A DNA stretch of 64,000 bases, taken from sequence record NC_041919.1, one strand, 5' to 3'. The position numbers were made by a program, and so were the translations under genes. The stretch is from Escherichia phage HP3. The stretch's first letter is position 1. Every line of letters starts with the position of its first letter. The notes beneath the pieces were generated by a model that made no database searches, was not told the DNA's origin, and saw nothing but the letters and a program-made list of their open reading frames with translations. Below are positions 5,687-59,987 of the stretch, one piece after another.

Positions 5687-5709
5687 AGTCTCCTTCGGGA
5701 GACTTTTTT
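5687..5709 (+). terminator. rho-independent terminator (UUCG tetraloop hairpin + T-run)
   Basis: AGTCTCC-TTCG-GGAGACT followed by TTTTTT. Confidence 0.8.
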
Positions 5710-5719
5710 CATTTTACCG

Positions 5720-5749
5720 GTTTACTTTCCATTTGAGCTGTGATACTAT
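5720..5749 (+). promoter_or_regulatory. T4-type early promoter
   Basis: GTTTAC 5720-5725, TACTAT 5744-5749. Confidence 0.55.
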
Positions 5750-5777
5750 ACAACTATCGGATAAAGAGGAGAACATC

Positions 5778-5966
5778 ATGAAAATTGAAGCACTTAATCA
5801 AGAAGGAAATATCTACGTCATCATTAATGGTGATTTTTTCGTCGACATGGATGAAGTTACTAGTGAAGAACTTGTAGAACTTCTTAAGAAACGTTATGAT
5901 ATGTGTGATGAAGCTGCAACTCATATGGCGTGTGCAATATTCTCTCTTTCATATGTGGTGGAATAA
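5778..5966 (+). CDS. hypothetical protein (62 aa)
   Basis: ATG 5778 after AAGAGGAG SD; track ORF 5733-5966 trimmed. Confidence 0.5.
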
Positions 5967-6169
5967 TGACTAGAATTGAACAAGCAGATAAAATTAAAGA
6001 ATTGGTAGCTTTAATTCGCAAAGCAGATGAGGAACTTAGTGACTTTGCTTGGTTTTCGGCAGGCATTGCAAATAAAGGTATTGAAAAATTTGAAGCTAAA
6101 GTTGATAATGCTTTAGAAGCGTTAGATATGTTTCTTGATGAAATTATCGATCATAATACGAGAGTTTAA
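5966..6169 (+). CDS. hypothetical protein (67 aa)
   Basis: ATG 5966 overlapping upstream stop; track ORF trimmed. Confidence 0.5.
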   Translation: MTRIEQADKIKELVALIRKADEELSDFAWFSAGIANKGIEKFEAKVDNALEALDMFLDEIIDHNTRV

Positions 6170-6171
6170 TT

Positions 6172-6366
6172 ATGCTAACACGTGAACAGTTTGAAAAAAT
6201 CATTAAATTAGCACGTGATATTGAAATAGATTCATACCAATTAGCAGTTGAGCATTGTGAAGGATATTCATACGACGGTATAGAAGCAGCTAAAAAGGAT
6301 TTGGATAAATCCAAAGCTAAGTTAGTTCAATATCTTGAAATGATTAGGTGGAATAATGAAAACTGA
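6172..6366 (+). CDS. hypothetical protein (64 aa)
   Basis: Track ORF. Confidence 0.5.
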   Translation: MLTREQFEKIIKLARDIEIDSYQLAVEHCEGYSYDGIEAAKKDLDKSKAKLVQYLEMIRWNNEN

Positions 6367-6529
6367 AAAGCAGATGTTTTTAATGAAGCTAATTGAAGAA
6401 TATGCTAATGCAGTTTCTGACTATGAGTATTCTGCTCGGGAAAGAGGTACAGCTTTCGCAAAGGAAGAAATGAAAATCATGGTTGATGCTCACACAAAGC
6501 TTCAGAATTTTATTGAAAACGTCATTTAA
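6356..6529 (+). CDS. hypothetical small protein (57 aa)
   Basis: ATG 6356 to TAA 6527-6529 read from sequence; below track cut-off. Confidence 0.35.
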   Translation: MKTEKQMFLMKLIEEYANAVSDYEYSARERGTAFAKEEMKIMVDAHTKLQNFIENVI

Positions 6530-6531
6530 TG

Positions 6532-6573
6532 GTTTACAAGTTGACAAGATTATGATATAGTAATCTTGTCAAC
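6532..6573 (+). promoter_or_regulatory. early promoter embedded in 13-bp perfect inverted repeat
   Basis: GTTTAC 6532-6537, TATAGT 6556-6561; arms GTTGACAAGATTA 6540-6552 / TAATCTTGTCAAC 6561-6573. Confidence 0.6.
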
Positions 6574-6696
6574 TGCCAAGGAGAAGAGAATGAAAGTTTT
6601 GTTTGTTGTGTATGTGATGATTCAATATAATTATCCAATGTTTACTTATAATCTGGTGAACAACATTATTGATATTATTCAAAGGAGTATGTAATT

Positions 6697-7254
6697 GTGG
6701 GTGAGTCGAAGAGAATCAATATGAAACGATTAGTATTAGAAGTTAGTCCGCTTTTTGGTGAATTAGCTATAGAAAAAGTAAATAATATGTATCGTTTGAC
6801 ACAAGAAGACGATATGCTATATTTTACGCCTAGTGAAATCATTCATTTAACCCAAATTGAATATCCTTATACTGATAAAATAGTAAGCATCAATGATGAG
6901 CACAAAATTCATTTTTATTCTTCATGCCCAGGATTTAATATTAAAAGTGAGTCAATGTGTTTATCAGTTATCCATTGGGATAGCTTTATAGCTAAGATTA
7001 AATATTTTTATTATTCTAATGAAAGAAAACATAGTTTAAAATGGCTCAAAAATTGCAATGCTATTATTACTAACGCTTGCAATCAGAATGATGAAACTGT
7101 TTTAAACGTATCAAAATGCTATGAAGATGGTGATGTCTTAACTATTCGTCAAATTGATGATTTTCGATCGTATATTGTCACATTTACCAAAGACGAAGCT
7201 ATTGCGCTAAAGACTTATCTCGATTCTGTCATTCCAACTATGATTTCAAAGTGA
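6697..7254 (+). CDS. hypothetical protein, paralog A1 (185 aa)
   Basis: GTG start with AAGGAG SD 9 nt upstream; C-terminus aligns with next ORF. Confidence 0.6.
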   Translation: MGESKRINMKRLVLEVSPLFGELAIEKVNNMYRLTQEDDMLYFTPSEIIHLTQIEYPYTDKIVSINDEHKIHFYSSCPGFNIKSESMCLSVIHWDSFIAKIKYFYYSNERKHSLKWLKNCNAIITNACNQNDETVLNVSKCYEDGDVLTIRQIDDFRSYIVTFTKDEAIALKTYLDSVIPTMISK

Positions 7255-7260
7255 GGAAAT

Positions 7261-7782
7261 ATGTTTATTTCAAGTGGAAGTGGTTTAATTCGTGTTGAAT
7301 TTAAAAATGACATCTTCCTTATTCAAGGAGATGATATTATTAAAATGAGTTATGATGAAATTAAGAAAATTTGTAATGCTCTTGAAAGTCATGGAAAAGT
7401 GAACGCTGTTATTGATATTGGTGATTTATGGGTGACACTTTATGAAGTATCCGAAGGATTTAATATTGAAGATGAAAACAACATCTTAGCTATTGATAAA
7501 AGAAGCGATTTGTTTGATGTGTTAAAAGTTTATGAACAGTCAAACGGTGGAAGAAAAGCTGTATTGATTTATCAAAAACCACATTCATGTGGAACTGCTT
7601 CAATCATTTCAGATATTGAAGATGAAACTGATACTTATATGTGTGTTTTAAAAGCTGGTGGTGACCGTCATCCGGATTTTATTTCTATTCGTCAAAACAA
7701 TGAAGAAATTTCATTATCAAAATCAGAAGCTGAAGCTATGATTAAGTATTTAACAACTGTTACACCTTCAATGAAAGGATAA
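7261..7782 (+). CDS. hypothetical protein, paralog A2 (173 aa)
   Basis: C-terminal EAEAMIKYLTTVTPSM vs A1 EAIALKTYLDSVIPTM. Confidence 0.6.
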   Translation: MFISSGSGLIRVEFKNDIFLIQGDDIIKMSYDEIKKICNALESHGKVNAVIDIGDLWVTLYEVSEGFNIEDENNILAIDKRSDLFDVLKVYEQSNGGRKAVLIYQKPHSCGTASIISDIEDETDTYMCVLKAGGDRHPDFISIRQNNEEISLSKSEAEAMIKYLTTVTPSMKG

Positions 7783-7784
7783 TT

Positions 7785-8246
7785 ATGATTATTAATGAAA
7801 ACTCTTGGCACTATAAATTATTCAAATTGTTTAACGATGAATGGCAACGACCTAAGACGCTGTGCGCATACTTTTGGTCTATTGTTATCCCTACATTTTT
7901 CGTTTCTTTTTTCGGATGTACTATACTCGTAGGTCTAACTATCATCTGCGCAGAAATCATACAGAAATGGCTTATTTTTGGTAGTTTATGGACTCTTATT
8001 CCATCAGCATTTATACTTGCCATTTTGCTTGTTTTACTTATTGTCGGTTCATTTGTTATTCCTGCACAACTGCGTGAAAAATATAAAGATTATAAATGGA
8101 AAAAGGATTATGCTTTACACGTAGAAAATATTGATAGGGCGTATAAAGGTTTACCTCCTATTCAACCCAAGAAATCGATTATCGTTGAATTTTTAAAAGC
8201 TCGTAAAGCTAAAGTATGTCCTGTTATTGAATATAAGGCTGAATGA
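7785..8246 (+). CDS. multi-pass membrane protein (153 aa)
   Basis: Two long hydrophobic segments FWSIVIPTFFVSFFGCTILVGLTIICAEI and LWTLIPSAFILAILLVLLIVGSFVI. Confidence 0.6.
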   Translation: MIINENSWHYKLFKLFNDEWQRPKTLCAYFWSIVIPTFFVSFFGCTILVGLTIICAEIIQKWLIFGSLWTLIPSAFILAILLVLLIVGSFVIPAQLREKYKDYKWKKDYALHVENIDRAYKGLPPIQPKKSIIVEFLKARKAKVCPVIEYKAE

Positions 8247-9256
8247 TGAAAACAGTAATGAAAAGCTATTTTGGTAGTCATCTTTATGGAACTTCTACCC
8301 CAGAATCTGATGTAGATTTTAAAGAAATCTTTGTTCCTCCTGCTCGTGATATTCTTATCGGAAATGTTAAAGAGCACATGAGTAAAAACACTAACAACAC
8401 ATCATCTAAAAACACTAAAGATGATATTGACCATGAACTATACAGTCTTAAATATTTCTTTAAATTAGCAGCAGATGGTGAAACTGTAGCGTTAGATATG
8501 CTTCACACTCCACCTGAACTAGTGGTTAAATCTGATTTGCCTGATGTGTGGAAGTTTATTCAAGACAACCGTTCTCGTTTTTATACGACTAACATGAAAT
8601 CCTATTTAGGATATGTCCGTAAGCAAGCTTCTAAATACGGCGTTAAGGGTTCTCGTTTGGCTGCATTACGTGATGTATTGAAAGTAGTTAATCAAATCCC
8701 TGAGCAATGGGTTGATTACCAAGAAGATGGTTCTATTAAGCAGCGTCGTACTAAAGTTGAAGATATTAAGCATCGTCTTCCAGAAAACGAATTCTGTGAA
8801 TGGGTGTTCCATAATCATGAGAAAACAGGCCCACAGACGTTCTACACAGTGTTGGGTCGTAAATATCAGACAACGCTTTCTCTTATTGAGCTTAAGCAGT
8901 CACTGAACAAATTAGATGCTGAATACGGTGAACGTGCTCGTAAGGCCGAAGCCAATGAAGGTATTGACTGGAAAGCTATGAGTCATGCTTGCCGTGGTGG
9001 ACTCCAACTATTGGAAATTTACAAAACTGGTGACTTGGTTTATCCACTCCAAGATGCTCCATTTATTCTCGACGTGAAGTTGGGTAAACATCCATTTAAA
9101 ACGGTTCAAGAGTTTTTGGAAGATGTGGTCGATCAAGTAGAAGCAGCATCTACTGAAGCTTCTAAGAACGGTATGCAGCAAAAAGTAGACATGGGTTTTT
9201 GGGATGACTTCCTTGAGAGGGTTTATCTTGAAAACCACCGAAGTTATTATAAATGA
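8243..9256 (+). CDS. nucleotidyltransferase-fold protein (337 aa)
   Basis: N-terminal FGSHLYGTSTPESDVDF fits the pol-beta-type G[GS]x9-13 DxD motif, third acidic residue in VALDML; ATGA overlap with upstream gene. Confidence 0.6.
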   Translation: MMKTVMKSYFGSHLYGTSTPESDVDFKEIFVPPARDILIGNVKEHMSKNTNNTSSKNTKDDIDHELYSLKYFFKLAADGETVALDMLHTPPELVVKSDLPDVWKFIQDNRSRFYTTNMKSYLGYVRKQASKYGVKGSRLAALRDVLKVVNQIPEQWVDYQEDGSIKQRRTKVEDIKHRLPENEFCEWVFHNHEKTGPQTFYTVLGRKYQTTLSLIELKQSLNKLDAEYGERARKAEANEGIDWKAMSHACRGGLQLLEIYKTGDLVYPLQDAPFILDVKLGKHPFKTVQEFLEDVVDQVEAASTEASKNGMQQKVDMGFWDDFLERVYLENHRSYYK

Positions 9257-9258
9257 TA

Positions 9259-9283
9259 GGGAGCCTTCGGGCTCCCTTTTTTT
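9259..9283 (+). terminator. rho-independent terminator
   Basis: GGGAGCC-TTCG-GGCTCCC + TTTTTTT. Confidence 0.85.
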
Positions 9284-9307
9284 ATTTCAAAAATTTTTCA
9301 CAAAATT

Positions 9308-9337
9308 GTTTACAAGCATAAAGCTTTATGGTACTAT
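9308..9337 (+). promoter_or_regulatory. T4-type early promoter with conserved leader
   Basis: GTTTAC 9308-9313, TACTAT 9332-9337; leader nearly identical to the one at 36377-36446. Confidence 0.6.
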
Positions 9338-9371
9338 ACAACTATCAACTGATACGGATTTGGAGAATAAA

Positions 9372-10340
9372 ATGAAAACTGTAACTATCAATAAGGGTAT
9401 CTACTTCGGTAAAGAAATCTCTGGAACTTTTGAGCTCTTAGGTGAATGGTTCCCAGATAATGCTCCGGTAGATGCACAAGGAGATGGTAAAGTTTTTGTT
9501 GAAATTGACGGTAAGCGTCGCGGTGTTTGGGTTTACAAATCAGACATTTCATATGATGGTGTAAAAGTTGAAGAAGTTAAAGAATCGTATGAAGATATGA
9601 AAACCCGCATTAATAAAAGATTTAATGTTATGGGAATGATGACGAATGGTATTATTAACGGAAACATTCGTTCATTAATTATCTCTGGTGCGGCGGGTAT
9701 TGGTAAAACGTATTCTTTAGATAAAGCTTTAAATAAAGCAAATGATATTGGATACATTGAATATAAAAGCATTAATGGTAAAATCTCTGGTATTGGTCTT
9801 TATGAGCAGCTTTGGAATAATCGTGAAGAGAATTCTGTACTTTTGATTGATGATGTGGATGTTTTCTCTGATATGGACATTCTTAATCTTCTGAAAGCTG
9901 CTCTGGACACCGGAGAGACCCGCAAAGTCTGCTGGAGCACTGCATCTTCTTACTTAGAAGAAAAAGGCATTGAGCGTGAGTTTGAATTTAAAGGAACGAT
10001 TGTTTTTATCACAAACGTTGACATTGACCGCGAATTAGACCGTGGTACTAAACTTGCTCCACATTTACAAGCATTAGTTTCCCGCTCGGTTTATTTAGAT
10101 TTGGGTGTTCACACTAATGAAGAAATTATGGTCAGGGTTGAAGATGTTATTCTTTCAACTGACATGATGCAAAAACGCGGTCTTTCTGATGAAGAAACTT
10201 ATAAAGCATTATCATGGATGAAAGTCAATGTTAATCGTTTACGCAATGTTTCACTGCGTACTGCACTTTATCTTGCTGACTTTATTATGACCGACAAAAA
10301 CGGTTGGGAAGAAATCGCTGAGGTTACTCTTCTGAAATAA
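9372..10340 (+). CDS. P-loop NTPase / AAA-like ATPase (322 aa)
   Basis: Walker A SGAAGIGKT, Walker B VLLIDDVD; ATG 9372 after GGAG SD; track ORF 9204-10340 trimmed. Confidence 0.7.
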   Translation: MKTVTINKGIYFGKEISGTFELLGEWFPDNAPVDAQGDGKVFVEIDGKRRGVWVYKSDISYDGVKVEEVKESYEDMKTRINKRFNVMGMMTNGIINGNIRSLIISGAAGIGKTYSLDKALNKANDIGYIEYKSINGKISGIGLYEQLWNNREENSVLLIDDVDVFSDMDILNLLKAALDTGETRKVCWSTASSYLEEKGIEREFEFKGTIVFITNVDIDRELDRGTKLAPHLQALVSRSVYLDLGVHTNEEIMVRVEDVILSTDMMQKRGLSDEETYKALSWMKVNVNRLRNVSLRTALYLADFIMTDKNGWEEIAEVTLLK

Positions 10341-10441
10341 TTCATAAGAGGCCTTCTATGACAAAAAGGCAGTTCAGAAATAGATTATATGGACTGCCAT
10401 CAAAAAGATGATTAGAATTAAACTGGTAAATGGAGGTAGTG

Positions 10442-10744
10442 ATGTTATACTCAAAGGCTCGTGAAATTTACGAAACTAAAATTAAAGACGCGGTTCATCA
10501 GTTCGCAACGACAATGCGTTGGACAAATGACTGGGAATACTCCAAGAATCATAAGAAGCCCTTGGTGACAAGAAAGGCTCATATGTTAGTGTTAATAGAC
10601 CGTGAGCAGATTAAAGCCCGAGAAGCCCTCCAGAATCATAAAAAGGCTGCCTTTGAATGGTTTATGGATAACACTGCTCCTGAGACTAAGAAAGCGGTAA
10701 GCGCATGGTTCAGTGGAAAAAATTGTGAAAGAAGTTTCTTTTAG
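10442..10744 (+). CDS. hypothetical protein (100 aa)
   Basis: ATG 10442 after GGAGG SD; track ORF trimmed. Confidence 0.5.
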   Translation: MLYSKAREIYETKIKDAVHQFATTMRWTNDWEYSKNHKKPLVTRKAHMLVLIDREQIKAREALQNHKKAAFEWFMDNTAPETKKAVSAWFSGKNCERSFF

Positions 10745-10746
10745 TG

Positions 10747-10776
10747 GTTTACAAGACTGTTCCTCTGTGGTACTAT
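10747..10776 (+). promoter_or_regulatory. T4-type early promoter
   Basis: GTTTAC 10747-10752, TACTAT 10771-10776; shares TGGTACTATACAACTATCAACTAC leader motif. Confidence 0.6.
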
Positions 10777-10804
10777 ACAACTATCAACTACGGAGGAACA
10801 CAAA

Positions 10805-11332
10805 ATGAACGCTAAAGATATTTTCAACCTGGTAAATTACAACGATGGTAAATTTAAATCTGAAGCACAAAGCAAGTTCTTTAATGACATCTCAATCGGA
10901 GGTGAAATCACGGTTGACGGAGGACAAATTTACAAATCTCGTTGGAATTGGATCGTTATTATCGATGAGATTGGTATTGTAGAAATTTACAAGAATACGA
11001 ATAAAAATCGTACATTACACTGGTCTCGTGATACTAACGAACAGTACAAAAAGGATAAAGCATCTAAATTATCTCGTGTAACTCAAGAAGATATTGAGTT
11101 CATCAAGAAAGATATTTTGATGTATGATAACTTAATTGCTGAAGAGCAAGCTGTTATTGATAAATTTGATGAGATTAAAGCTTCTCGTGAAATTCCTGAT
11201 TTTATGAAAGAATCAGTAAATGAACGATACACTCTCATTTCAGAGCGTATTGAAACTTACAAAAAGCAAAGAGCTGAACGCCAAAATACTCTTCGGAAGT
11301 TTGAAGAACGGTTAAAGACGGTACTCGCATAA
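10805..11332 (+). CDS. hypothetical protein (175 aa)
   Basis: Track ORF with GGAGG SD. Confidence 0.6.
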   Translation: MNAKDIFNLVNYNDGKFKSEAQSKFFNDISIGGEITVDGGQIYKSRWNWIVIIDEIGIVEIYKNTNKNRTLHWSRDTNEQYKKDKASKLSRVTQEDIEFIKKDILMYDNLIAEEQAVIDKFDEIKASREIPDFMKESVNERYTLISERIETYKKQRAERQNTLRKFEERLKTVLA

Positions 11333-11387
11333 CCGCTTTATACCAAGGATGGTATAATGGTTCTAAGCCCTTTTAATTGAGATTATT

Positions 11388-11795
11388 ATGAAACAGTTGA
11401 TAATTAAAAGATTGAATTTATTGATATGTTGTTTATGTGTAGTAGTTGCATATGGTTATTACGCAATTAATGATTATATGCATTATAAAGATTATGATGT
11501 TACTGTAGTTAATACCTTTACAGGAACTCAAGGAAAGGGGTCTAGTTTATCGTTTATTGCTGTATATGAACTCAAAGACGGTTATAGATTTAGCGAATAT
11601 ATTTCACCAGAGATGTATTCATCAATAGAAAAAGGCGATAATATTACTGTAAGTTTACGTCCTTTCGACGTAAAACAGACATTGTTTGATAATATTGTTT
11701 GGTTCTTTGGAATGGTATTAGTTCAATCTGTGTGTGGTGCTTATATAGTCTGTTCCATCTTATTCTGTATATTTAGTAAAATTGAAATTGAGTGA
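11388..11795 (+). CDS. membrane protein (135 aa)
   Basis: Hydrophobic N- and C-terminal segments. Confidence 0.5.
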   Translation: MKQLIIKRLNLLICCLCVVVAYGYYAINDYMHYKDYDVTVVNTFTGTQGKGSSLSFIAVYELKDGYRFSEYISPEMYSSIEKGDNITVSLRPFDVKQTLFDNIVWFFGMVLVQSVCGAYIVCSILFCIFSKIEIE

Positions 11796-11802
11796 GGAAA
11801 AT

Positions 11803-12690
11803 ATGTCAGTAGTAATTAATAATGTCAATGCAGTAATTAAATCTTTAGTTAATAAAAAATTGAATGAATGGACTGTACTTCGTCGTGGAGAGCCAGATAA
11901 ATTTTTTCATAGATTTAACCCAACTTTGGATTTGAATGTTATTGACAGAGATGTTCATGCTGAAATTTTAGATAAATTTAAAGTTGATATTGGGTTTGGA
12001 TTAGATAAACATTTACAACGAACAAACGGGTCTGGAATGGGTTTATCTAATCGCATCATGAAAGCCCTTAATAAAATTGGAGCGTTGTCTCGTATTAATG
12101 CGAGTGAAATCCTTCGCAATTATAATAAAGGATATGACCTTTATGGTCGATTAATGCCGAAATTATCATTTGACCAAATGATCGCAGATTTGTGGGAAAA
12201 TCAACGACGATTATTAGCATTAGGCGCTCGATTAGCTAAAGGTCTAGATAAACAAATGATTTTTAAGACCAATAATACAGAAGACCTTAAATGCTTTAAA
12301 TTTAGTATTCGTGGCGATGATTATTATATCAGAGCTCACTCTACAGATTATGTTAATATGGGGCATCATCTCTGTTTAGCTTTTGAAGTTTTAAAAGAAG
12401 CCGGAACATTAGAATATTCATCTGGTGCAAAATGCCCTATTGGTTCAAGTTGTATTTTAATTTATCGCCCGGATGAATCCAGTTCAACTAAATTGCCTAC
12501 AAAACCTGTACCAGTTCGTAGTAATGAAAAACATTCTGAGCAAATTGATTATTTTAATAAGCAAATTGAAGAGCTGAATATTTCTATTCAACAATATGAT
12601 GATGAAATTTTCAGACTATCTGGACTGAGTAGTAAAGCTAAATCTGAGCGTGAAAAGTTAATTAAAATTATCGATTTACTTAAATCTTAA
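11803..12690 (+). CDS. paralog family B member 1 (295 aa), C-terminal coiled coil
   Basis: ATG 11803 after TGAGGAAAAT; shared motif WENQRRLLALGARL; heptad-rich tail. Confidence 0.6.
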   Translation: MSVVINNVNAVIKSLVNKKLNEWTVLRRGEPDKFFHRFNPTLDLNVIDRDVHAEILDKFKVDIGFGLDKHLQRTNGSGMGLSNRIMKALNKIGALSRINASEILRNYNKGYDLYGRLMPKLSFDQMIADLWENQRRLLALGARLAKGLDKQMIFKTNNTEDLKCFKFSIRGDDYYIRAHSTDYVNMGHHLCLAFEVLKEAGTLEYSSGAKCPIGSSCILIYRPDESSSTKLPTKPVPVRSNEKHSEQIDYFNKQIEELNISIQQYDDEIFRLSGLSSKAKSEREKLIKIIDLLKS

Positions 12691-12698
12691 GGAACACC

Positions 12699-13721
12699 AT
12701 GAAAACTCGTTCTCAAATTGAAGATATGGTTCGTAATGCCAGCTATACTCGTGATGCTATGACATTTTTGTGCGAAAATAATTTAGACCTTGGTAAAGTT
12801 AATTGTTCCATTCACGCCTTTAAACATCTGAACAGCAGTGAATGGGTGCGTAATTTTAATGAAGCTGGGTATATTACTCAAATGACTGCTCGTGAACAGC
12901 TCACCGATTTCTGTAAAACTATTGATTATAAAAATCCTCTATTTGTTCAAGGTGTTGGTCAGAGTAAGGTCGATTTATCATCTGGATTTTTCAATCCAAA
13001 TCATTATCGTATTGAATGGAGATTTATTGCTCTATTCCGTAAACAATTAAAGCAAATTTTGTCTACTGCTAGTCGATTAAAAGGTTCTGATATTAACTTA
13101 AAGAATCTGAAATTTGATGGTTATACTCTTCAGATGGAAGTAAGACCATTAAAAGAAAATAACAGAACTGCACGAATTAGCTTTAAACCTAATACAAAAA
13201 ATTCTCTTTCAATTTGTGAATGCCTTAAATCACAGTTGACAGAAGCATTTAAGTATATGGATGTAGTTGCCGCGGTTCAGTCTAAGATTTTACCTCATTT
13301 TGAGCGAAATTGGGAACATACAACAACGTATGAACTTGATATGATCGTTTCATTTAAATACGATTTTTTGAGAAAGGACGAAGTCCCGCAAGAGAAAAAG
13401 CAGGAAGTGCAAGATATCTTAAATTTATCCAATTACTCATCAAACGATCCTAAATTTTGGATGTATAGTTCAGGTAATAAAGATACATGGAAATTCAATA
13501 AAGTGAATTTTCTTCCTGTTGAAAATCCGAGTCTTAAACCTGTTGAAAAATGGCACGCGGATGCGATTGAGAAGTCTATCAAGGCAGTAGATGATGAACT
13601 CGTTAAAGCAACTAATGAAGTGTTAGAAGCTGAAAAGATGCTAGAAAAAGCTCAAGAAAAAGTCAAAAATCTTACGAAGCAACGTTCTAAACTGAACAAC
13701 GCACTAAATGCACTAAACTAG
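12699..13721 (+). CDS. paralog family B member 2 (340 aa)
   Basis: Motif WRFIALFRKQLKQILSTASRL aligns with next ORF; coiled-coil tail. Confidence 0.65.
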   Translation: MKTRSQIEDMVRNASYTRDAMTFLCENNLDLGKVNCSIHAFKHLNSSEWVRNFNEAGYITQMTAREQLTDFCKTIDYKNPLFVQGVGQSKVDLSSGFFNPNHYRIEWRFIALFRKQLKQILSTASRLKGSDINLKNLKFDGYTLQMEVRPLKENNRTARISFKPNTKNSLSICECLKSQLTEAFKYMDVVAAVQSKILPHFERNWEHTTTYELDMIVSFKYDFLRKDEVPQEKKQEVQDILNLSNYSSNDPKFWMYSSGNKDTWKFNKVNFLPVENPSLKPVEKWHADAIEKSIKAVDDELVKATNEVLEAEKMLEKAQEKVKNLTKQRSKLNNALNALN

Positions 13722-13750
13722 TTTACTTTGCCACAAGGATGTGGTATAAT
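13721..13750 (+). promoter_or_regulatory. T4-type early promoter (duplicate of 59958-59987)
   Basis: GTTTAC 13721-13726, TATAAT 13745-13750; 30-nt block nearly identical to the 59958 copy. Confidence 0.65.
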
Positions 13751-13778
13751 GTTCTTACTTTCTACTGAGGAGATTAAT

Positions 13779-14780
13779 ATGACTCGTAACGAATATATCA
13801 AATCATTCAATAGCGTTATTGATGATAAAGTTAAACCTGTGTTTAGTCAGAATAGTGTTATTTCCATTATCAATCAATGGCTCAATAATATTGATGCAAG
13901 TATTGTTTCTTCAAGCAAATTTATTCATGAAGTTCATAAAATTTCTAGTCGCGAATATAAAGATGATATTAAGGAAACTTTTAAAGGTTCTCGTCTTCTT
14001 TCATATTTAGTTAATCAAGATATTCTTGGTAAATTTGGGAAAGAAATTAAACGAACTAAAGATGTAGTAGGATACAGTTGGTTCGGTGATGTTAATTCTT
14101 ATCATCTTAATAATAAAGAAGACCCTGAGAATATTTTTACTCGTCGTTGGATTAGTAATTTTAGACTTTTCAAGAAGCAAATTCTAAAATCAGCTTCTAA
14201 ATTATGCTATGGTGATTATCGTCAAATCCATCCTTGGGCTTCTGATATGATTATCATAAAAGAATATGAGCTTGATAAAAATAAAGCAGCTATTTTTGTG
14301 AATTATGAATTTTTTACACCAGAAGCTAATCAAAAGAACATTAATAAATTTTTCTCAATTGCTAGCGATATAACTCGTCAGTTAGAGACCGCATTACTTT
14401 GTATGGAAACAGTAGAAAATATTCATACTTATCCTTTTAAGAATATATGCGGTTGGGAAGGATATAAAATTGTAGTTAGTCTCCGTGAAGTAAAGTGTGC
14501 GTACTCACCGACTGATAAAGAAATTTACCAACAAAAATGTGATGAAATTGTGAATACTCCTAAAGAAGAAACTACCCTTGAGGAACTAATGGAATGTCTT
14601 GACGATTCGCCTGAACCAGTAGAAATTCGTCCAGAAGTTATTGCACTAGAAAAAGCTTATAAAGAAGTTCTAGAAATTTCTAATAAAGCGCAGAAAGAAT
14701 ATGAGCAGGCTAAAAAGATTTGGGAAGAATCCGTTAATCGTCTTGATCGTCTTGAACAAGCTTTACAGTTAATTAAGTAA
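13779..14780 (+). CDS. paralog family B member 3 (333 aa)
   Basis: ATG 13779 after GAGGAG SD; motif WISNFRLFKKQILKSASKL; coiled-coil tail. Confidence 0.65.
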   Translation: MTRNEYIKSFNSVIDDKVKPVFSQNSVISIINQWLNNIDASIVSSSKFIHEVHKISSREYKDDIKETFKGSRLLSYLVNQDILGKFGKEIKRTKDVVGYSWFGDVNSYHLNNKEDPENIFTRRWISNFRLFKKQILKSASKLCYGDYRQIHPWASDMIIIKEYELDKNKAAIFVNYEFFTPEANQKNINKFFSIASDITRQLETALLCMETVENIHTYPFKNICGWEGYKIVVSLREVKCAYSPTDKEIYQQKCDEIVNTPKEETTLEELMECLDDSPEPVEIRPEVIALEKAYKEVLEISNKAQKEYEQAKKIWEESVNRLDRLEQALQLIK

Positions 14781-14832
14781 TTTAAAGCCAAGGATGGCTC
14801 GGAGTATAAACCATTAACCAAGTGAGAAGAAT

Positions 14833-15762
14833 ATGAAAACTCGTAAACATTATATTGATTATTTTGACAGTCTTATTACTAAACACCGTAATTATCAGAT
14901 CGGGCACAGAGCAGTAATCAATAATATTCTTCGTGATTTCCTTCAATATGTTGGTCAGGAAAATCATATCTGTAAAGATACTCAAAACGCTTATTCTCAT
15001 TCGTTAGGCAATTTGCTTGAATGGTTTAAACGTTCTCGTATGTTATCTTCTACTGTAGCTCATGAGAACATTAAAAACTTTATGAAGCCGAGCTTCATTA
15101 AATCTGAGACATCTATAACCGATTTGGTTGAATTTACTATTGTTAATGATGTTAAAAAGACTCATTTGGCTGATTGGTTTTCTACCATTCCTGAAACTAA
15201 ATTTGCTGATAAATTTGCTTGTCAATTCAATGACCAAGTGAATATGCTTTTTAAGCATGCTCGCAAACTATTTACCGCGGGCGATGACCGTACAAATACA
15301 GTTCATGTTAAGGACTGGGTTATTGCTGATGAAGTAACACACAAGCCAGGTGGTTCATCAGTATTAATTAATATCCAGGTTCCTTATTATTACTCACGTA
15401 ATCTTGGCACCATGACAGCTAAAGAAATTAATAAGCACAACAAAACTATTCGTTCGTTGTCTTATAAACTCCGCATGATGTTAAAAATTATGGACGTAGT
15501 GGAAATGTATGACGAAACCGAAGATAATGGTTCAATGTTATACAGTTCACGCATTCTAATTAAACTGAAGAACCCTAATACATATAAGACAGTTGTAAAA
15601 GAGCCTAAAGTAGAAAAGGTTGATAATCTGAGTGAAGAACGTGAATATCTCAATGCCCGTTTGATTGAAGTTGAAGCCCAAATTGCAGAACACACCAAAT
15701 TGTTAAAAGCTCTTAATGCAAAAGCAAATGGTTTACGTAATGCTATTGAGGTATTGAAATGA
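14833..15762 (+). CDS. paralog family B member 4 (309 aa)
   Basis: Starts MKTR like member 2; motif FNDQVNMLFKHARKL; coiled-coil tail. Confidence 0.65.
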   Translation: MKTRKHYIDYFDSLITKHRNYQIGHRAVINNILRDFLQYVGQENHICKDTQNAYSHSLGNLLEWFKRSRMLSSTVAHENIKNFMKPSFIKSETSITDLVEFTIVNDVKKTHLADWFSTIPETKFADKFACQFNDQVNMLFKHARKLFTAGDDRTNTVHVKDWVIADEVTHKPGGSSVLINIQVPYYYSRNLGTMTAKEINKHNKTIRSLSYKLRMMLKIMDVVEMYDETEDNGSMLYSSRILIKLKNPNTYKTVVKEPKVEKVDNLSEEREYLNARLIEVEAQIAEHTKLLKALNAKANGLRNAIEVLK

Positions 15763-16148
15763 AAAAGCGTTTATTAGAAGACATTGCAGCTTCAAGTAAT
15801 TCCAGTTTAATTAAAATTATTATGGCTGGTGAGGAAGATGATATGGAAATGCGTGGAAAGATTCACGGCTGCGACGATTTAGATTTTAAACCTCCAGCAT
15901 GGGATGCTATTATGGCTATGGTTGAACGACGTGAAAGAGCTTCTAAAAACGTTCCTAATTGCCCTGAATGCGGTACTGAACAAGTTCAGTTGATTAACTG
16001 GCGTAAACCAGAGCTTGAATATAAATGCCGTCAATGTAAACATAAATTCAGTAAGCATGCTCCGGAAATGGTTAAATTGCCTGACTCTACTGAGTTCTTT
16101 AAAGAACTTGTGAGTGTTCAACCAATGCCTAATAATATTTTGGATTAA
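15759..16148 (+). CDS. zinc-ribbon protein (129 aa)
   Basis: CPECG...CRQC four-Cys ribbon. Confidence 0.55.
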
Positions 16149-16150
16149 AA

Positions 16151-16393
16151 ATGACCAAGCGTAAAGAATATATGGAGGCTGCTGAAAAGGCAGTCCGTGA
16201 ATTAGCAATAGCTTATTATAATGAACACGGTAAATTTCCTGATAGATACAGCGTGCTTAAATCTGCTTTAACTCGTTCATATAAAAATATGCTATCAGAA
16301 GTAAGTGATATTATATACAAACATAAAGAACAAACGGGCCAAAGTCTTGATTACGACGAGACTTTTAAACAAGTACTAGGAATTAAGGAATAA
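16151..16393 (+). CDS. hypothetical protein (80 aa)
   Basis: Track ORF. Confidence 0.55.
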
Positions 16394-16394
16394 T

Positions 16395-16658
16395 ATGTTT
16401 AAAGTATATGGTTATGATAGCAACATTCATAAATGCGTGTATTGCGATAATGCAAAACGTCTTTTGACTGTGAAGAAACAGCCGTTTGAATTTATCAACA
16501 TTATGCCGGAAAAAGGTGTTTTTGATGATGAGAAAATCGCTGAGCTTCTGACTAAACTAGGTCGTGATACTCAAATCGGCTTGACAATGCCTCAGGTATT
16601 TGCTCCTGATGGAAGTCATATTGGTGGATTTGACCAACTGCGAGAATATTTTAAATGA
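16395..16658 (+). CDS. nrdC: glutaredoxin/thioredoxin NrdC (87 aa)
   Basis: CVYC active site, 87 aa as T4 NrdC. Confidence 0.9.
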   Translation: MFKVYGYDSNIHKCVYCDNAKRLLTVKKQPFEFINIMPEKGVFDDEKIAELLTKLGRDTQIGLTMPQVFAPDGSHIGGFDQLREYFK

Positions 16659-16870
16659 TGCTCGAAGGAACTGACTATATTCATGATTACCGCGGAAGCG
16701 CGGTATATGTAGGTGATGAAGTTGCAGTTTATTATGGGTATGGAACTTTGATGACAGCCAAGGTTATTCAAATTAAAAATAATCGTGCTAAACTCGAAGT
16801 TTATTATTCTAATGGCGAAAAGTCTATTTCTAAGTGGAAATACGGCGATTGCATGGTCAAACTGGGGTAA
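16655..16870 (+). CDS. hypothetical protein (71 aa)
   Basis: Track ORF with ATGA overlap. Confidence 0.5.
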   Translation: MMLEGTDYIHDYRGSAVYVGDEVAVYYGYGTLMTAKVIQIKNNRAKLEVYYSNGEKSISKWKYGDCMVKLG

Positions 16871-16872
16871 AT

Positions 16873-17043
16873 ATGATTTACGATATTAATGTATCACGAG
16901 CTCCGTCAATGGTTACTATTCCAGCCGAAGAACTAGATCGTCTTCAGAAAATTGAAGAACTTCTTTGGGAAATTGAATGTGACCTGCCATCAGGACTAGA
17001 ATCTTGGATTGATTATGAAGAACTTAATAAGCTTCGGGGTTAA
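16873..17043 (+). CDS. hypothetical protein (56 aa)
   Basis: ATG 16873 right after upstream stop; track ORF 16834-17043 trimmed. Confidence 0.4.
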   Translation: MIYDINVSRAPSMVTIPAEELDRLQKIEELLWEIECDLPSGLESWIDYEELNKLRG

Positions 17044-17165
17044 ACCTTGGTGGGCGGCTAGATGGGAAACTGTAGAGCCAGAGCCGGAAGAACCGGTTTA
17101 CACTGATGAAGAAACAATATATAATGAACCAACGATAAATGACTTAATTGATATGGAGATGGGAC

Positions 17166-17651
17166 ATGATTACAGTAGATAAGTGGTTTAGAATTAATCG
17201 TGCTGATACAGGGCTGTGTAATTACTGGCCGGAACTTAGTGCAGGTACTGTCTTTAAAGTTCGTGAACTTGCAAAAGAATGTGAAGATGATATAGAGCCT
17301 GATACTGGAATTATTGAAATTGAACTTTCCGACGGAAAGATTATTAACATCTACGATAAGCCAATTACGTATTGGTGCTTGTGGAATACTGAATCCATTG
17401 AAAATGGCGAAATTGAAGAAGTTGTAGAGCGAACTAATCAAGTTGTTCAGAAGCCTAAAGCCGATTTTCAAGGTGAACGTATTTCATACGCATTAGCTAA
17501 ATTAGCTGCACAAGAAAATAACGATGGCTATGAAGGAAATTTGATGCAAGCTGCGGCAGAATATATTGAATGGCTTGAAACCCAAATTTCTTTTTCTGAC
17601 CAAAAGATTCGGCAATATAAGCGATTGAATCAAATGTTTTACAATACTTGA
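17166..17651 (+). CDS. hypothetical protein (161 aa) at the T4 pin position
   Basis: ATG 17166; 161 aa and position between nrdC and gene 49 are consistent with T4 Pin, but identity not verified. Confidence 0.5.
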   Translation: MITVDKWFRINRADTGLCNYWPELSAGTVFKVRELAKECEDDIEPDTGIIEIELSDGKIINIYDKPITYWCLWNTESIENGEIEEVVERTNQVVQKPKADFQGERISYALAKLAAQENNDGYEGNLMQAAAEYIEWLETQISFSDQKIRQYKRLNQMFYNT

Positions 17652-17692
17652 AAATAATAAATACCCTTATCTATTTAAGGTAAGGGTTTATT

Positions 17693-18166
17693 ATGTTATT
17701 GACTGGCAAATTATACAAAGAAGAAAAACAGAAATTTTATAATGCACAAAACGGTAAATGCTTAATTTGCCAACGAGAACTAAATCCTGATGTTCAAGCT
17801 AATCACCTTGACCATGATCATGAATTAAATGGACCAAAAGCAGGAAAGGTACGTGGATTGCTTTGTAATCTCTGCAATGCCGCAGAAGGTCAAATGAAGC
17901 ATAAATTTAATCGTTCTGGCTTAAAGGGACAAGGTGTTGATTATCTTGAATGGTTAGAAAATTTACTTACTTATTTAAAATCCGATTACACCCAAAATAA
18001 TATTCACCCTAACTTTATTGGAGATAAATCAAAGGAATTTTCTCGTTTAGGAAAAGAGGAAATGATGGCTGAGATGCTTCAAAGAGGATTTGAATATAAT
18101 GAATCTGACACTAAAACACAGTTAATAGCTTCATTTAAGAAGCAGCTTAGAAAGAGTTTAAAATGA
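17693..18166 (+). CDS. 49: endonuclease VII, Holliday junction resolvase (157 aa)
   Basis: 157 aa; Cys/His cluster CLICQ..HLDHDH..CNLCN typical of T4 endo VII. Confidence 0.9.
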   Translation: MLLTGKLYKEEKQKFYNAQNGKCLICQRELNPDVQANHLDHDHELNGPKAGKVRGLLCNLCNAAEGQMKHKFNRSGLKGQGVDYLEWLENLLTYLKSDYTQNNIHPNFIGDKSKEFSRLGKEEMMAEMLQRGFEYNESDTKTQLIASFKKQLRKSLK

Positions 18167-47212: not shown

Positions 47213-47233
47213 AAGCCGGGAGACCGGCTTTTT
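47213..47233 (+). terminator. rho-independent terminator
   Basis: AAGCCGG-GAGA-CCGGCTT + TTT. Confidence 0.7.
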
Positions 47234-47372: not shown

Positions 47373-47380
47373 TATAAATA
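47373..47380 (+). promoter_or_regulatory. T4 late promoter TATAAATA for soc
   Basis: Exact TATAAATA about 30 nt upstream of soc ATG. Confidence 0.7.
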
Positions 47381-47655: not shown

Positions 47656-47660
47656 ATTCA

Positions 47661-47685
47661 AGGACTCCTTCGGGAGTCCTTTTTT
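47661..47685 (+). terminator. rho-independent terminator
   Basis: AGGACTCC-TTCG-GGAGTCCT + TTTTT. Confidence 0.85.
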
Positions 47686-47695
47686 CATTTTACCG

Positions 47696-47725
47696 GTTTA
47701 CTTTCCAAAATGAGTATGGTATAAT
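47696..47725 (+). promoter_or_regulatory. T4-type early promoter (cassette shared with 5687-5749)
   Basis: GTTTAC 47696-47701, TATAAT 47720-47725. Confidence 0.6.
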
Positions 47726-56471: not shown

Positions 56472-56510
56472 CTATATACATCAGTAGTTGATTATGGTAC
56501 TATATCAATA
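56472..56510 (+). promoter_or_regulatory. promoter-stem-loop element (11-bp inverted repeat around a -10)
   Basis: CAGTAGTTGAT 56472-56482 / ATCAACTACTG 56500-56510 flanking TACTAT 56488-56493; -35 degenerate. Confidence 0.45.
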
Positions 56511-56620
56511 TCAACTACTGATACAGAAAACAACTTGGAGAATAAAATGGATAATTCGTTAAAGGTGCGCTGATACTCTTCTGAAACGCATCGCTCCAAT
56601 GTTCAATTAATGAGGAAATT

Positions 56621-57252: not shown

Positions 57253-57254
57253 TT

Positions 57255-57431
57255 ATGCCGCTTTATGATTATAAATGTCAATCAAAAGACTGCGCAAAAG
57301 AATACGAAAAAATCAAGAAAATTTCTGAAAGAGATACTGATGTATGTCCTGATTGTCATCGGATTGCTGTTCGGTTAGTTTCCGCTCCTAGACATGTGAA
57401 TGGTGGTTTTTACGACTTGCTTAAAGGGTGA
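57255..57431 (+). CDS. FmdB-like zinc-ribbon protein (58 aa)
   Basis: YDYKCQSKDC...CPDC pattern; read from sequence, below track cut-off. Confidence 0.45.
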   Translation: MPLYDYKCQSKDCAKEYEKIKKISERDTDVCPDCHRIAVRLVSAPRHVNGGFYDLLKG

Positions 57432-57433
57432 TT

Positions 57434-57805
57434 ATGTTTAAAATCGGTAAGAAATATCGCATTCGCGAAGGTGAAGAAAAGAAATATCTATTTTCTGCTA
57501 TTTATAGGAATGGTTCTATTAGTAATGTAATATCTACAAGCGAATTTATCGTTGAAGATATGAAAGGTAATAACGTTACAATGATTAGTACAGCATCTGG
57601 AAATGACGGAAAAATTCTTCACAGTTTTCAGAGTAATGTTCTAATATATGATGAAGAATTTAATCTATTCGAAGAAGTTCCCGAAGATTTTGATTTTGAA
57701 TGCACTATCACTATGAAATCTGGTGACCCTCTTTCTTTTACAGTTAAAGATGAAAGAAGCCGCTTGAGAGTTATTAGTCTTCTTCAAGCCATTAAATTTA
57801 AGTGA
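57434..57805 (+). CDS. hypothetical protein (123 aa)
   Basis: ATG 57434 within track ORF 57428-57805. Confidence 0.5.
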   Translation: MFKIGKKYRIREGEEKKYLFSAIYRNGSISNVISTSEFIVEDMKGNNVTMISTASGNDGKILHSFQSNVLIYDEEFNLFEEVPEDFDFECTITMKSGDPLSFTVKDERSRLRVISLLQAIKFK

Positions 57806-57810
57806 AAATT

Positions 57811-58071
57811 ATGAAATATATTAATCGTTCTATCGCAGCATTAGTATTAGCAGTGTCTTTAATAGGATGTACTGATGCTGATAATGCAACCAAAGTTTTG
57901 TCTTCAAGTGGTTTTACTAATATTGAAATCACTGGATATAATTGGTTCGGTTGCTCTGAAAATGATTTCCAGCATACTGGATTTCGTGCTATTGGACCTA
58001 CTGGGCAGAAAGTAGAAGGAACAGTATGTTCTGGACTATTCTTCAAGGATTCGACTATTCGTTTTAAATAA
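57811..58071 (+). CDS. lipoprotein (86 aa)
   Basis: Lipobox LIGC after hydrophobic leader. Confidence 0.55.
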   Translation: MKYINRSIAALVLAVSLIGCTDADNATKVLSSSGFTNIEITGYNWFGCSENDFQHTGFRAIGPTGQKVEGTVCSGLFFKDSTIRFK

Positions 58072-58088
58072 AAGGCCTTCGGGCCTTT
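58071..58088 (+). terminator. terminator hairpin
   Basis: AAAGGCC-TTCG-GGCCTTT. Confidence 0.6.
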
Positions 58089-58113
58089 AGCTTTATGATT
58101 ACCGGAGTATAAT
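58089..58113 (+). promoter_or_regulatory. MotA-box-like middle promoter for gene 39
   Basis: AGCTTTA 58089-58095, 12 nt, TATAAT 58108-58113. Confidence 0.45.
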
Positions 58114-58140
58114 ATTCCCGAAACCAAACGAGGATAAGTG

Positions 58141-59958
58141 ATGATTAAGAATGAAATTAAAATTCTGAGCGATATTGAACATATCAAAAAGCGTAGCGGC
58201 ATGTATATTGGCTCTTCTGCTAATGAAATGCATGAGCGCTTTCTGTTTGGTAAATGGGAAAGTGTTCAGTATGTACCTGGTCTTGTTAAGCTTATTGATG
58301 AAATTATCGATAACTCAGTAGATGAAGGTATTCGTACTAAGTTTAAATTCGCAAATAAAATTAATGTTACTATTAAAAACAATCAAGTAACAGTTGAAGA
58401 TAACGGTCGCGGTATTCCACAAGCGATGGTCAAAACACCTACCGGTGAAGAAATTCCTGGTCCTGTTGCTGCATGGACTATTCCAAAAGCAGGTGGTAAC
58501 TTTGGTGATGATAAAGAACGTGTCACCGGTGGTATGAATGGTGTTGGTTCTAGTTTGACAAACATTTTTTCTGTGATGTTTGTCGGTGAAACTGGTGATG
58601 GTCAAAATAATATTGTAGTTCGTTGTTCAAATGGCATGGAAAATAAATCATGGGAAGATATTCCTGGAAAATGGAAAGGAACTCGTGTTACTTTCATTCC
58701 TGATTTTATGTCATTTGAAACTAATGAGCTGTCTCAGGTTTATCTTGACATTACACTGGACCGTCTCCAGACACTCGCAGTAGTTTATCCTGATATTCAA
58801 TTTACCTTTAATGGTAAAAAGGTTCAGGGCAATTTTAAGAAATATGCACGCCAATATGATGAGCATGCTATTGTTCAAGAACAAGAAAATTGTTCTATTG
58901 CGGTTGGTCGTTCACCGGATGGTTTTCGTCAATTAACATACGTTAATAACATTCATACTAAGAATGGTGGCCATCACATTGACTGTGTTATGGATGATAT
59001 TTGTGAAGACCTTATTCCACAAATCAAACGTAAGTTCAAAATTGATGTGACTAAAGCACGCGTTAAAGAATGTTTGACTATCGTTATGTTTGTCCGTGAT
59101 ATGAAAAACATGCGATTTGATTCTCAAACTAAAGAGCGTTTGACTTCTCCATTTGGTGAAATCCGTAGTCATATTCAACTTGATGCTAAAAAGATTTCAC
59201 GTGCTATTCTAAATAATGAAGCAATTCTAATGCCGATTATTGAAGCTGCTTTGGCTCGTAAATTGGCGGCAGAAAAAGCAGCAGAAACTAAAGCAGCTAA
59301 AAAGGCTTCTAAAGCTAAGGTTCATAAACATATCAAAGCGAATCTTTGTGGTAAAGATGCTGACACTACTCTTTTCTTGACTGAGGGTGATTCGGCTATC
59401 GGATATCTTATTGATGTTCGTGATAAAGAACTTCATGGTGGTTATCCATTGCGCGGTAAAGTTCTCAACAGTTGGGGTATGTCATATGCTGATATGCTTA
59501 AAAACAAAGAATTGTTTGATATTTGCGCAATCACTGGATTAGTTCTCGGTGAAAAAGCTGAAAACTTGAATTATCATAATATCGCTATTATGACTGATGC
59601 TGACCATGATGGTCTAGGAAGCATTTATCCTTCTCTGCTCGGGTTTTTTAGTAATTGGCCAGAACTGTTTGAGCAAGGAAGAATTCGTTTTGTCAAAACT
59701 CCTGTAATCATCGCTCAGGTCGGTAAAAAACAAGAATGGTTTTATACAGTCGCTGAATATGAGAGTGCTAAAGATGCTCTACCTAAACATAGCATCCGTT
59801 ATATTAAAGGACTTGGCTCTTTGGAAAAATCTGAATATCGTGAGATGATTCAAAATCCAGTATATGATGTTGTTAAACTTCCTGAGAACTGGAAAGAGCT
59901 TTTTGAAATGCTCATGGGAGATAATGCTGACCTTCGTAAAGAATGGATGAGCCAGTAG
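58141..59958 (+). CDS. 39: topoisomerase II ATPase subunit, single continuous ORF (605 aa)
   Basis: GHKL ATPase motifs (EIIDNSVDE, DNGRGIP, GGMNGVGSS); 605 aa without interruption. Confidence 0.93.
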   Translation: MIKNEIKILSDIEHIKKRSGMYIGSSANEMHERFLFGKWESVQYVPGLVKLIDEIIDNSVDEGIRTKFKFANKINVTIKNNQVTVEDNGRGIPQAMVKTPTGEEIPGPVAAWTIPKAGGNFGDDKERVTGGMNGVGSSLTNIFSVMFVGETGDGQNNIVVRCSNGMENKSWEDIPGKWKGTRVTFIPDFMSFETNELSQVYLDITLDRLQTLAVVYPDIQFTFNGKKVQGNFKKYARQYDEHAIVQEQENCSIAVGRSPDGFRQLTYVNNIHTKNGGHHIDCVMDDICEDLIPQIKRKFKIDVTKARVKECLTIVMFVRDMKNMRFDSQTKERLTSPFGEIRSHIQLDAKKISRAILNNEAILMPIIEAALARKLAAEKAAETKAAKKASKAKVHKHIKANLCGKDADTTLFLTEGDSAIGYLIDVRDKELHGGYPLRGKVLNSWGMSYADMLKNKELFDICAITGLVLGEKAENLNYHNIAIMTDADHDGLGSIYPSLLGFFSNWPELFEQGRIRFVKTPVIIAQVGKKQEWFYTVAEYESAKDALPKHSIRYIKGLGSLEKSEYREMIQNPVYDVVKLPENWKELFEMLMGDNADLRKEWMSQ

Positions 59959-59987
59959 TTTACTTTACCACAAGGATGTGGTATAAT
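59958..59987 (+). promoter_or_regulatory. T4-type early promoter (duplicate of 13721-13750)
   Basis: GTTTAC 59958-59963 overlapping gene 39 stop, TATAAT 59982-59987. Confidence 0.6.

Follow-up and report, generated by a model that had tools for sequence, protein, structure and literature searches.

Repeated promoter and hairpin cassettes in the early and middle gene region of an Escherichia phage HP3-like Tequatrovirus

Hairpins with a C(UUCG)G tetraloop in the intercistronic regions of bacteriophage T4 were reportedly described by Tuerk and colleagues in 1988. The early promoter consensus of T4-type phages has been published (Hinton 2010, PMC2988021; Comeau 2014, PMC4122927), and middle promoters are characterized by a MotA box, (a/t)(a/t)(a/t)TGCTTtA, located 12±1 bp 5' of a good -10 box (Hinton 2010, PMC2988021). 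Furthermore, promoter-early stem-loop (PeSL) cassettes are known from T4-type phages, and their published description already takes in T4 and Yersinia phage PST (Arbiol et al. 2010, PMC2839356; Comeau et al. 2014, PMC4122927). Here we analyzed a stretch of 64,000 nucleotides (64 kb) from Escherichia phage HP3 (NC_041919.1, hereafter the window), which represents the early and middle gene region of an HP3-like Tequatrovirus. An earlier note, made from the letters of this stretch, had listed five families of recurring regulatory modules, (a) to (e), and had proposed them as substrates for recombination. According to our analysis the repeats are very probably the signals that direct transcription in the early and middle region of a T4-type phage, and they act only occasionally as sites of crossover.

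Repeat families and the transcription signals they contain

All five families exceed chance expectation, with no match in 100 shuffles run as a control for each of them. Family (a), a terminator followed by an early -35 box, is present as an exact repeat of 29 nucleotides (nt), CTTTTTTCATTTTACCGGTTTACTTTCCA, at 5703-5731 and 47679-47707, with the common hairpin core CTCCTTCGGGAG ahead of both copies (at 5690 and 47665). The two copies of the 30-nt promoter of family (b), at 13721 and 59958, agree in 29 of 30 positions. For the promoter plus leader of family (c) the 22-mer TGGTACTATACAACTATCAACT occurs exactly at 9329, 10768 and 36398 and with 3 mismatches at 56495; copies c1 and c2 additionally have a leader of 35 nt in common with 97% identity (9348-9382 and 36420-36454). 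Family (d) had been given as a terminator plus MotA-like box in two near-identical copies. The repeat exists (26603-26633 versus 58066-58096, 87% over 31 nt), its stems, however, are not alike (GGGC/GCCC versus GGCC/GGCC). The hairpin of family (e) had been counted six times; we found its 16-mer exactly at five sites (22969, 26609, 31319, 63353 and 63581), and the copy at 33488 is the variant AAGGGGCTTCGGCCCCTT with one extra G-C pair. Further UUCG hairpins at 5687, 9258, 25337, 40360, 47660 and 58071, as well as a near-identical promoter pair at 6532 and 42096, were absent from that list.

For the promoters a second, consensus-keeping control was used, in which the 18 intergenic early promoters of the window were aligned on their -35 boxes and each column was shuffled. 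In this control the longest common run measured 18 nt at the family-wise 99th percentile and 21 nt at most, versus longest runs of 29, 24, 23, 22 and 20 nt observed for the listed promoter pairs. These pairs are therefore more alike than the consensus explains, and the suspicion that the repeats resemble each other only as much as any two sigma-70 promoters do is not borne out.

The view of the repeats as regulatory modules held for all three lines of comparison: the T4 early consensus, the mapped T4 middle promoter starts and the PeSL architecture. The T4-type early promoter pattern (GTTTAC(A/T), 17-nt spacing and a -10 box TAnnnT on the sense strand 5' of an early gene, in most cases together with TGn and an UP region rich in A/T) was found at 18 intergenic sites, including all copies of (a), (b) and (c). 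A generic sigma-70 scan of positions 1-20000 gave 85 sites versus 82 expected and does not discriminate; only the extended T4 consensus is informative. The cassettes, promoters and hairpins described below, as well as the small ORF inserted at c2, are located on the plus strand of the window, which corresponds to the minus strand of T4 and carries the early and middle genes in sense orientation. Cassette a1 (5687-5749) consists of a C(UUCG)G hairpin (5687-5704), a T-run and an early promoter (-35 box GTTTAC at 5720-5725, -10 box TACTAT at 5744-5749) and lies between the rI.-1 and mobD.5 homologues; the same elements make up a2 (47660-47725; hairpin 47660-47681, T-run, promoter with its -35 box at 47696 and -10 box TATAAT at 47720-47725) between soc and mrh.2. 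Promoters b1 (13721-13750, 5' of nrdC.4) and b2 (59958-59987, 5' of rIIA.1) both carry the hairpin CCACA-AGGA-TGTGG in their spacers. Among the (c) cassettes, c1 (9258-9374) comprises a terminator hairpin (9258-9277), an early promoter (9308-9337) and a leader that ends at the nrdC.10 ATG (9372); this cassette is an insertion hot spot. The corresponding parts of c2 (36273-36446), the T4 counterpart of which is the imm.1 promoter, are a UCCG-loop terminator hairpin (36273-36290), an early promoter (36377-36406) and a leader ending at an ATG at 36444. Cassette c3 (10747-10807) is an early promoter with the nrdC.8 leader, and c4 (56474-56549), between motB and cef, has a -35 box ATATAC and a leader.

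The promoters at 6532-6574 and 42096-42134, the latter located 5' of dmd, are 90% identical over 31 nt (42096-42126 in the second copy), and each is found within an inverted repeat of 13-14 bp (14 bp at 6532) that encloses the -10 box and is centred on it. Many early leaders, among them those at 13779, 42657, 45070 and 54833, carry the common motif CTACTGAGGAG(A/T)T ahead of the ATG, which recurs irrespective of the promoter sub-family. GGAG is the target motif of the RegB endoribonuclease.

The two (d) cassettes have the features of middle promoters. Both contain the MotA box TTTAGCTTTA, followed by 12 nt, the spacing of MotA middle promoters, and by TATAAT. Cassette d1 (26607-26650) begins with a C(UUCG)G hairpin at the a-gt stop and ends with the -10 box at 26645-26650, and d2 (58071-58113) begins with such a hairpin at the 39.1 stop and ends with the -10 box at 58108-58113; they correspond to T4 P47 and P39, respectively. 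A further C(UUCG)G hairpin with the consensus MotA box ATTGCTTTA at 25337-25385 is the counterpart of T4 PmobB, and it is directly 3' of this site that mobB is inserted in T4. The variant hairpin e4 (33488-33519, stem GGGGC/GCCCC) is followed by the -10 box of T4 P43, and a 220-nt open reading frame (ORF) that is absent from T4 ends directly 5' of it. In T4 coordinates the -10 boxes of the window end at 36583, 5356, 29938 and ~38688, that is 5-7 nt upstream of the mapped starts of P47 (36576), P39 (5349), P43 (29933) and PmobB (38682), with a distance of 7 nt for both d1 and d2. Directly 3' of e4 and the P43 -10 box we noted GAGCCTAATAACTCGGGCTA (33519-33545), identical to T4, which is the translational-operator hairpin of gp43 with the loop AAUAACUC. 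The gp43 operator hairpin was the target of the first SELEX experiment (systematic ligand evolution by exponential enrichment).

C(UUCG)G hairpins with a stem of at least 6 bp show a complete strand bias, with 12 of 12 on the plus strand and none on the minus strand. Folding energies of the hairpins range from about -9 to -17 kcal/mol (-8.8 to -15.9 for these 12), UNCG loops are present in 12 of the 16 intergenic G+C-rich hairpins, and all intergenic C(UUCG)G hairpins begin -3 to +21 nt from the stop codon of the upstream gene. Six hairpins (5687, 9258, 22969, 36273, 47660 and 63581) are followed by a T-run and look like intrinsic terminators; two of them, e1 (22969-22984, terminator-like) and e6 (63581-63596), are copies of the exact 16-mer. 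The T-run is absent from the hairpins at 25337, 26607, 31316, 33488, 58071 and 63352, among them e3 (31316-31337, between genes 45 and 44) and e5 (63352-63369, at the stop codon of the gene after rIIA), and these are most likely protective or processing structures at mRNA 3' ends. The exact 16-mer was found at no fewer than 120 loci in viral contigs, and among the matches listed 110 have no nucleotide similarity to the window, with G+C contents from 27 to 67%. It is a generic phage sequence and not special to T4.

Taken together, three kinds of element would be combined in the region. The first would be very strong early promoters read by the host sigma-70 polymerase, with UP region, GTTTAC, TGn, -10 box and a short leader with a strong ribosome-binding site; the second, MotA/AsiA-dependent middle promoters, the counterparts of T4 P47, P39, PmobB and P43; and the third, very stable C(UUCG)G hairpins within a few bases of the upstream stop, about half of them terminator-like. 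A terminator or hairpin placed beside a promoter would make a self-contained expression unit of a gene or small gene group, as in the PeSL arrangement. Because the likeness within sub-families (a), (b) and (c) goes beyond what the consensus demands, their members probably share descent, with occasional homogenisation. They are old and positionally fixed within Tequatrovirus. Their 20-70 nt of common sequence may sometimes serve as crossover site for the gain or loss of a promoter-ORF-terminator module, chiefly at the (c) leader and within the nrdC.11/nrdC.10 spacer; genes of the region would be gained and lost mainly by other routes.

Conservation of the cassettes and their part in recombination

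All cassettes were found nearly unchanged and at the same sites in T4, PST and W143, so that the families are older than the split between these phages and have fixed positions. A scan of IMG/VR for the 30-mer of (b) yielded only 5 contigs, each with the same two copies, and no further contexts. In L144, a T4-like IMG/VR contig from another genus, the (b) counterpart ACAACCAAGGATGGTTGGAGTATAAT is present twice (12908-12937 and 13928-13957); these copies have an exact run of 27 nt and are spaced about 1 kb apart with a single gene between them, whereas the copies in the window are 46 kb apart.

The near-identity within the sub-families might alternatively be maintained by concerted evolution, in which non-allelic gene conversion between the promoters of one genome keeps them alike, an explanation we regard as possible and would hold only tentatively. 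In Tequatrovirus the nrdC.10 and nrdC.8 promoters have a common block, TGGTACTATACAACTATC, that extends from the -10 box slightly beyond the start site, and in another genus both carry ATGTTATTATAGACCTATC instead. This pattern fits gene conversion, it fits a lineage-specific promoter optimum just as well, and the two are inseparable here. Copy a2 is polymorphic among the genomes and exactly equal to a1 in three of them, and the number of places found by megablast with a c1 probe varies between genomes from 1 to 4, as conversion would have it; against this, b1 and b2 differ at one position only (G/A), and this difference is fixed in all 4 genomes compared, and the states of an ACT indel (insertion or deletion) in c1 and c2 follow no consistent pattern. 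Two particular events were considered and rejected, a recent conversion of a2 by a1, for which three genomes carry the a1 state but the ancestral state is undecidable, and a reciprocal exchange between c1 and c2 via the ACT indel, the pattern of which is uninformative because a (-,-) genome exists.

For the question of recombination the homologous region was taken from eight relatives (T4, PST, W143 and five contigs from IMG/VR, each with 95-97% identity to the window), and every boundary of an indel or replacement was placed on the 115 gene junctions of the window. Individual indels do break inside (c) cassettes, and to this extent the proposed role as recombination substrates was supported. 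In W143 the c1 hairpin is separated from the c1 promoter by a complete promoter-ORF-terminator module. In V797 an insertion of 722 nt with two promoter-ORF modules lies between the c1 transcription start region (CTATCAA) and the nrdC.10 ribosome-binding site and is flanked by the 17-nt repeat TTGGAGAATAAAATGAA, in V875 the c1 UP region and -35 box are deleted and 515 nt gained, and V101 has a 200-nt insertion at the c4 leader. In the window itself a 234-nt ORF is inserted after the c2 leader, with a 14-nt junction overlap around ATGAAAAT; T4, PST, W143 and V101 lack this extra small ORF, which is placed at 36444-36690 between the c2 leader and imm.1. Direct repeats that flank indels inside cassette sequence measure 8-40 nt. 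An insertion in the nrdC.11/nrdC.10 spacer was found in about 22 of 57 Tequatrovirus genomes (~39%; the sample was spread evenly over the ranked hits) and comes in at least 6 sizes, and T4-like phages of other genera have their nrdC.11 and nrdC.10 starts ~1.0 to 3.3 kb apart. The crossovers are located in the A/T-rich region and between -10 box and ATG, as sequenced in RB49 mini-circles. For the (a) and (b) pairs exchange would presumably give no viable deletions, because the copies lie 42-46 kb apart across essential replication genes.

Several observations weigh against the reading we prefer. A boundary was found in at least one comparison at 39 of the 115 junctions, and junctions with an early promoter or hairpin were affected about as often (9/25, 36%) as those without (30/90, 33%), which corresponds to an odds ratio of 1.1 (p=0.81, eight relatives). 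The result was unchanged when junctions with a real intergenic gap were considered alone. Thirty of the 39 polymorphic junctions have neither early promoter nor hairpin, and 23 of these are tight gene-gene junctions. From the odds ratio, the role of the cassettes in recombination is minor at best. The extra ORF at c2 is present at one place in each of 318 records (in T4-numbered records in the 43/imm.1 region at ~25-28 kb), no movement between cassettes was seen among them, and a transfer of this ORF between loci was accordingly dropped as a candidate. Shared descent of the sub-families and lineage-specific selection are inseparable with nine genomes that are 95-97% identical, and the functions of the elements are read from T4 orthology and from the sequence. 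Thus, of the proposed match to the modular shuffling of T4-type phages, the architecture and a few hot spots stand and a general association with gene-content differences does not. The comparison of presence and absence among the relatives partly supports a recombination role that is real at a few hot spots and not a general property of the cassettes.

Pure functional convergence, by which the likeness would come from selection toward the same optimum with no role of recombination, would account for the lack of enrichment at cassettes, for their fixed positions and for a 16-mer that is widespread in viral contigs dissimilar to the window and of very different G+C content. We nevertheless consider it rather unlikely, as the runs of 20-29 nt exceed the consensus-keeping control and extend over parts of the spacer and leader not read by RNA polymerase, and as several independent indels have their breakpoints and flanking direct repeats inside cassettes. 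That the units are actively mobile, excising as mini-circles and reinserting elsewhere as the main driver of gene-content change, is improbable in spite of the mini-circles demonstrated in RB49 and phi1 (Arbiol 2010, PMC2839356) and the c1 spacer modules of varied size in Tequatroviruses and other genera, given the odds ratio, the predominance of cassette-free junctions among the polymorphic ones, the fact that no module was seen at two different loci and a DUF4031-type gene 5' of nrdC.10 that is found at the same locus in different genera.

The window is nearly identical to Escherichia phage HP3.1 (100% identity over 12 kb; 99.99% over all 64 kb with 1 mismatch and 2 small indels), and T4 shows ~97.5% identity over the same 12-kb piece. 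Positions 1-62415 are collinear with T4 64310-1, the alignment being broken by 16 indel or replacement junctions. The gene order starts with vs.8, tk, the nrdC cluster, nrdD, 55, a-gt and 47-46-45-44-62-regA-43, and continues with imm, 42, uvsX, 41, 61, dam, 56, soc, mod, dda, dexA, motB, 39 and rIIA. The thymidine kinase ORF (4157-4738) is intact with 193 aa as in T4, and laboratory-evolved HP3.1 annotates only 459 nt; the vs ORF (2578-2919) differs from HP3.1 by 3 nt. The large topoisomerase subunit (58141-59958) is encoded by a single continuous ORF, a fusion of gp60 and 39 as in PST, and mobA, 60.1 and the gene 60 segment with the 50-nt translational bypass are absent (T4 3911-2793 has no counterpart). 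Also absent, and present in T4, are the nrdD intron with I-TevII (18698-18701) and mobB (25391-25416), and the T4 homing-endonuclease genes mobD (7279-8242) and segF (46951-47373) are replaced by other ORFs. In place of T4 b-gt and segA the window has an 843-nt glucosyltransferase gene (38206-39153), which is annotated as beta-glucosyl-HMC-alpha-glucosyltransferase in PST and W143, suggesting a T2/T6-like pattern of DNA glucosylation. An Rfam scan of the whole window at gathering thresholds gave zero matches.

Pairing between promoter spacers and their own leaders

Eight to nine of the 18 early promoters lie in predicted hairpins in which the promoter spacer pairs with the promoter's own leader. 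The nine embedded promoters have z-scores below -2 compared to shuffled sequence, and the mean folding energy of the promoters is -11.1 versus -5.7 kcal/mol for random windows (p=0.003). Pairing is specific for the individual promoter, as a spacer combined with its own leader gives -9.1 and a spacer combined with the leader of another promoter -6.8 kcal/mol (permutation p=0.00035). In six or seven cases the Shine-Dalgarno sequence falls within the 3' arm, and the spacer often has an anti-Shine-Dalgarno CTTTCC or TTCCTC right after GTTTAC. Examples are c3, where the spacer pairs with its own Shine-Dalgarno sequence (-20 kcal/mol), and c4, where the spacer ATCAGTAGTTGAT pairs with the leader ATCAACTACTGAT. 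Upstream of the nrdC.8 and nrdC.10 orthologues in other genera the same architecture is found with other arm sequences, and the spacer hairpin of (b) has the counterparts AACCA-AGGA-TGGTT and ATCCA-AGGA-TGGAT in other genera. RNAalifold, applied to nrdC.8 promoters of three lineages, detected neither a common column-level structure nor compensatory pairs, because the hairpin registers differ by lineage, and a formal claim of covariation for the nrdC.8 promoter fold was consequently dropped.

Since both arms occur together only in RNA that enters from upstream by read-through, the pairing would probably lead to a masking or processing of read-through transcripts. Our tentative suggestion, for which we see a less than even chance, is a genome-wide translational insulation of early gene cassettes, in which about half of the early promoters use their 18-nt spacer as 5' arm and their own leader with the ribosome-binding site as 3' arm. 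If so, read-through transcripts would fold and mask the gene whereas those begun at the embedded promoter would remain open, translation of each early gene would draw mainly on the transcript of its own promoter, and it would become understandable that promoter and leader are inherited and exchanged as a single unit. Such complementarity, if functional, bears on the insulation of inserted genes in compact phage genomes and would be relevant to engineered T4-like therapeutic phages such as HP3.

Comparison with described T4-type elements

The overall picture is already known from T4 promoters, UUCG hairpins and PeSLs, the latter including T4 and PST. What has been reported from the 1988 work of Tuerk and colleagues on T4 hairpins (UUCG loop with C-G closing, intercistronic position, occurrence on the sense strand only, high stability) is the same in the window, where there is no difference in kind and a single exact 16-mer is present in 5 copies. 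The early promoters of the window have the UP/-35/TGn/-10 layout in common with those of T4 (Hinton 2010, PMC2988021). Equally, the MotA box is located 12 nt 5' of the -10 box in both the T4 middle promoters and the window (PMC2988021); the boxes of d1 and d2 read AGCTTTA instead of the published TGCTTTA, which is within the published tolerance.

The composite PeSL feature, an intergenic early promoter with a stem-loop that is repeated in the genome, is present in the window. Common to both are a strong sigma-70-like early promoter with A/T-rich sequence upstream of it, a stem-loop, a Shine-Dalgarno sequence and the ATG, as well as repetition in the early region and crossovers in the A/T-rich region and from -10 box to ATG. 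The T4/PST consensus of the PeSL papers, TTTACW-N17-TAYWAT, fits the promoters of the window. Stem-loops that enclose the -10 box or are located within the spacer are found in RB49, phi1 and the window alike, and hairpin plus MotA-box units, PmSL in nt-1, are present in the window at P47, P39, PmobB and P43. In contrast to the PeSL account, cassette junctions of the window coincide with indel boundaries no more often than its other gene junctions do; the preferential association with indels or variable ORFs was not found among the eight relatives, and individual hot spots exist at c1, c2 and c4. Textbook T4 regulatory architecture and the PeSL idea are thus confirmed in a further Tequatrovirus, and the claim that the cassettes drive modular shuffling is tempered by the lack of enrichment at their junctions.

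The pairing of spacer and leader also has a described relative. For the T4 genes e, soc, 49 and I-TevI the promoter lies in the 5' arm of a hairpin that masks the ribosome-binding site (Uzan and Miller 2010, PMC3014915), and the embedded promoters of the window are arranged alike. In both cases the hairpin can be formed only by transcripts that read through from upstream. The promoters of e, soc, 49 and I-TevI are late, whereas the embedded ones of the window are early, amount to 8-9 of 18 and have a predicted masking effect. The spacer-leader pairing is therefore an extension of a known T4 element and not a new kind of element.

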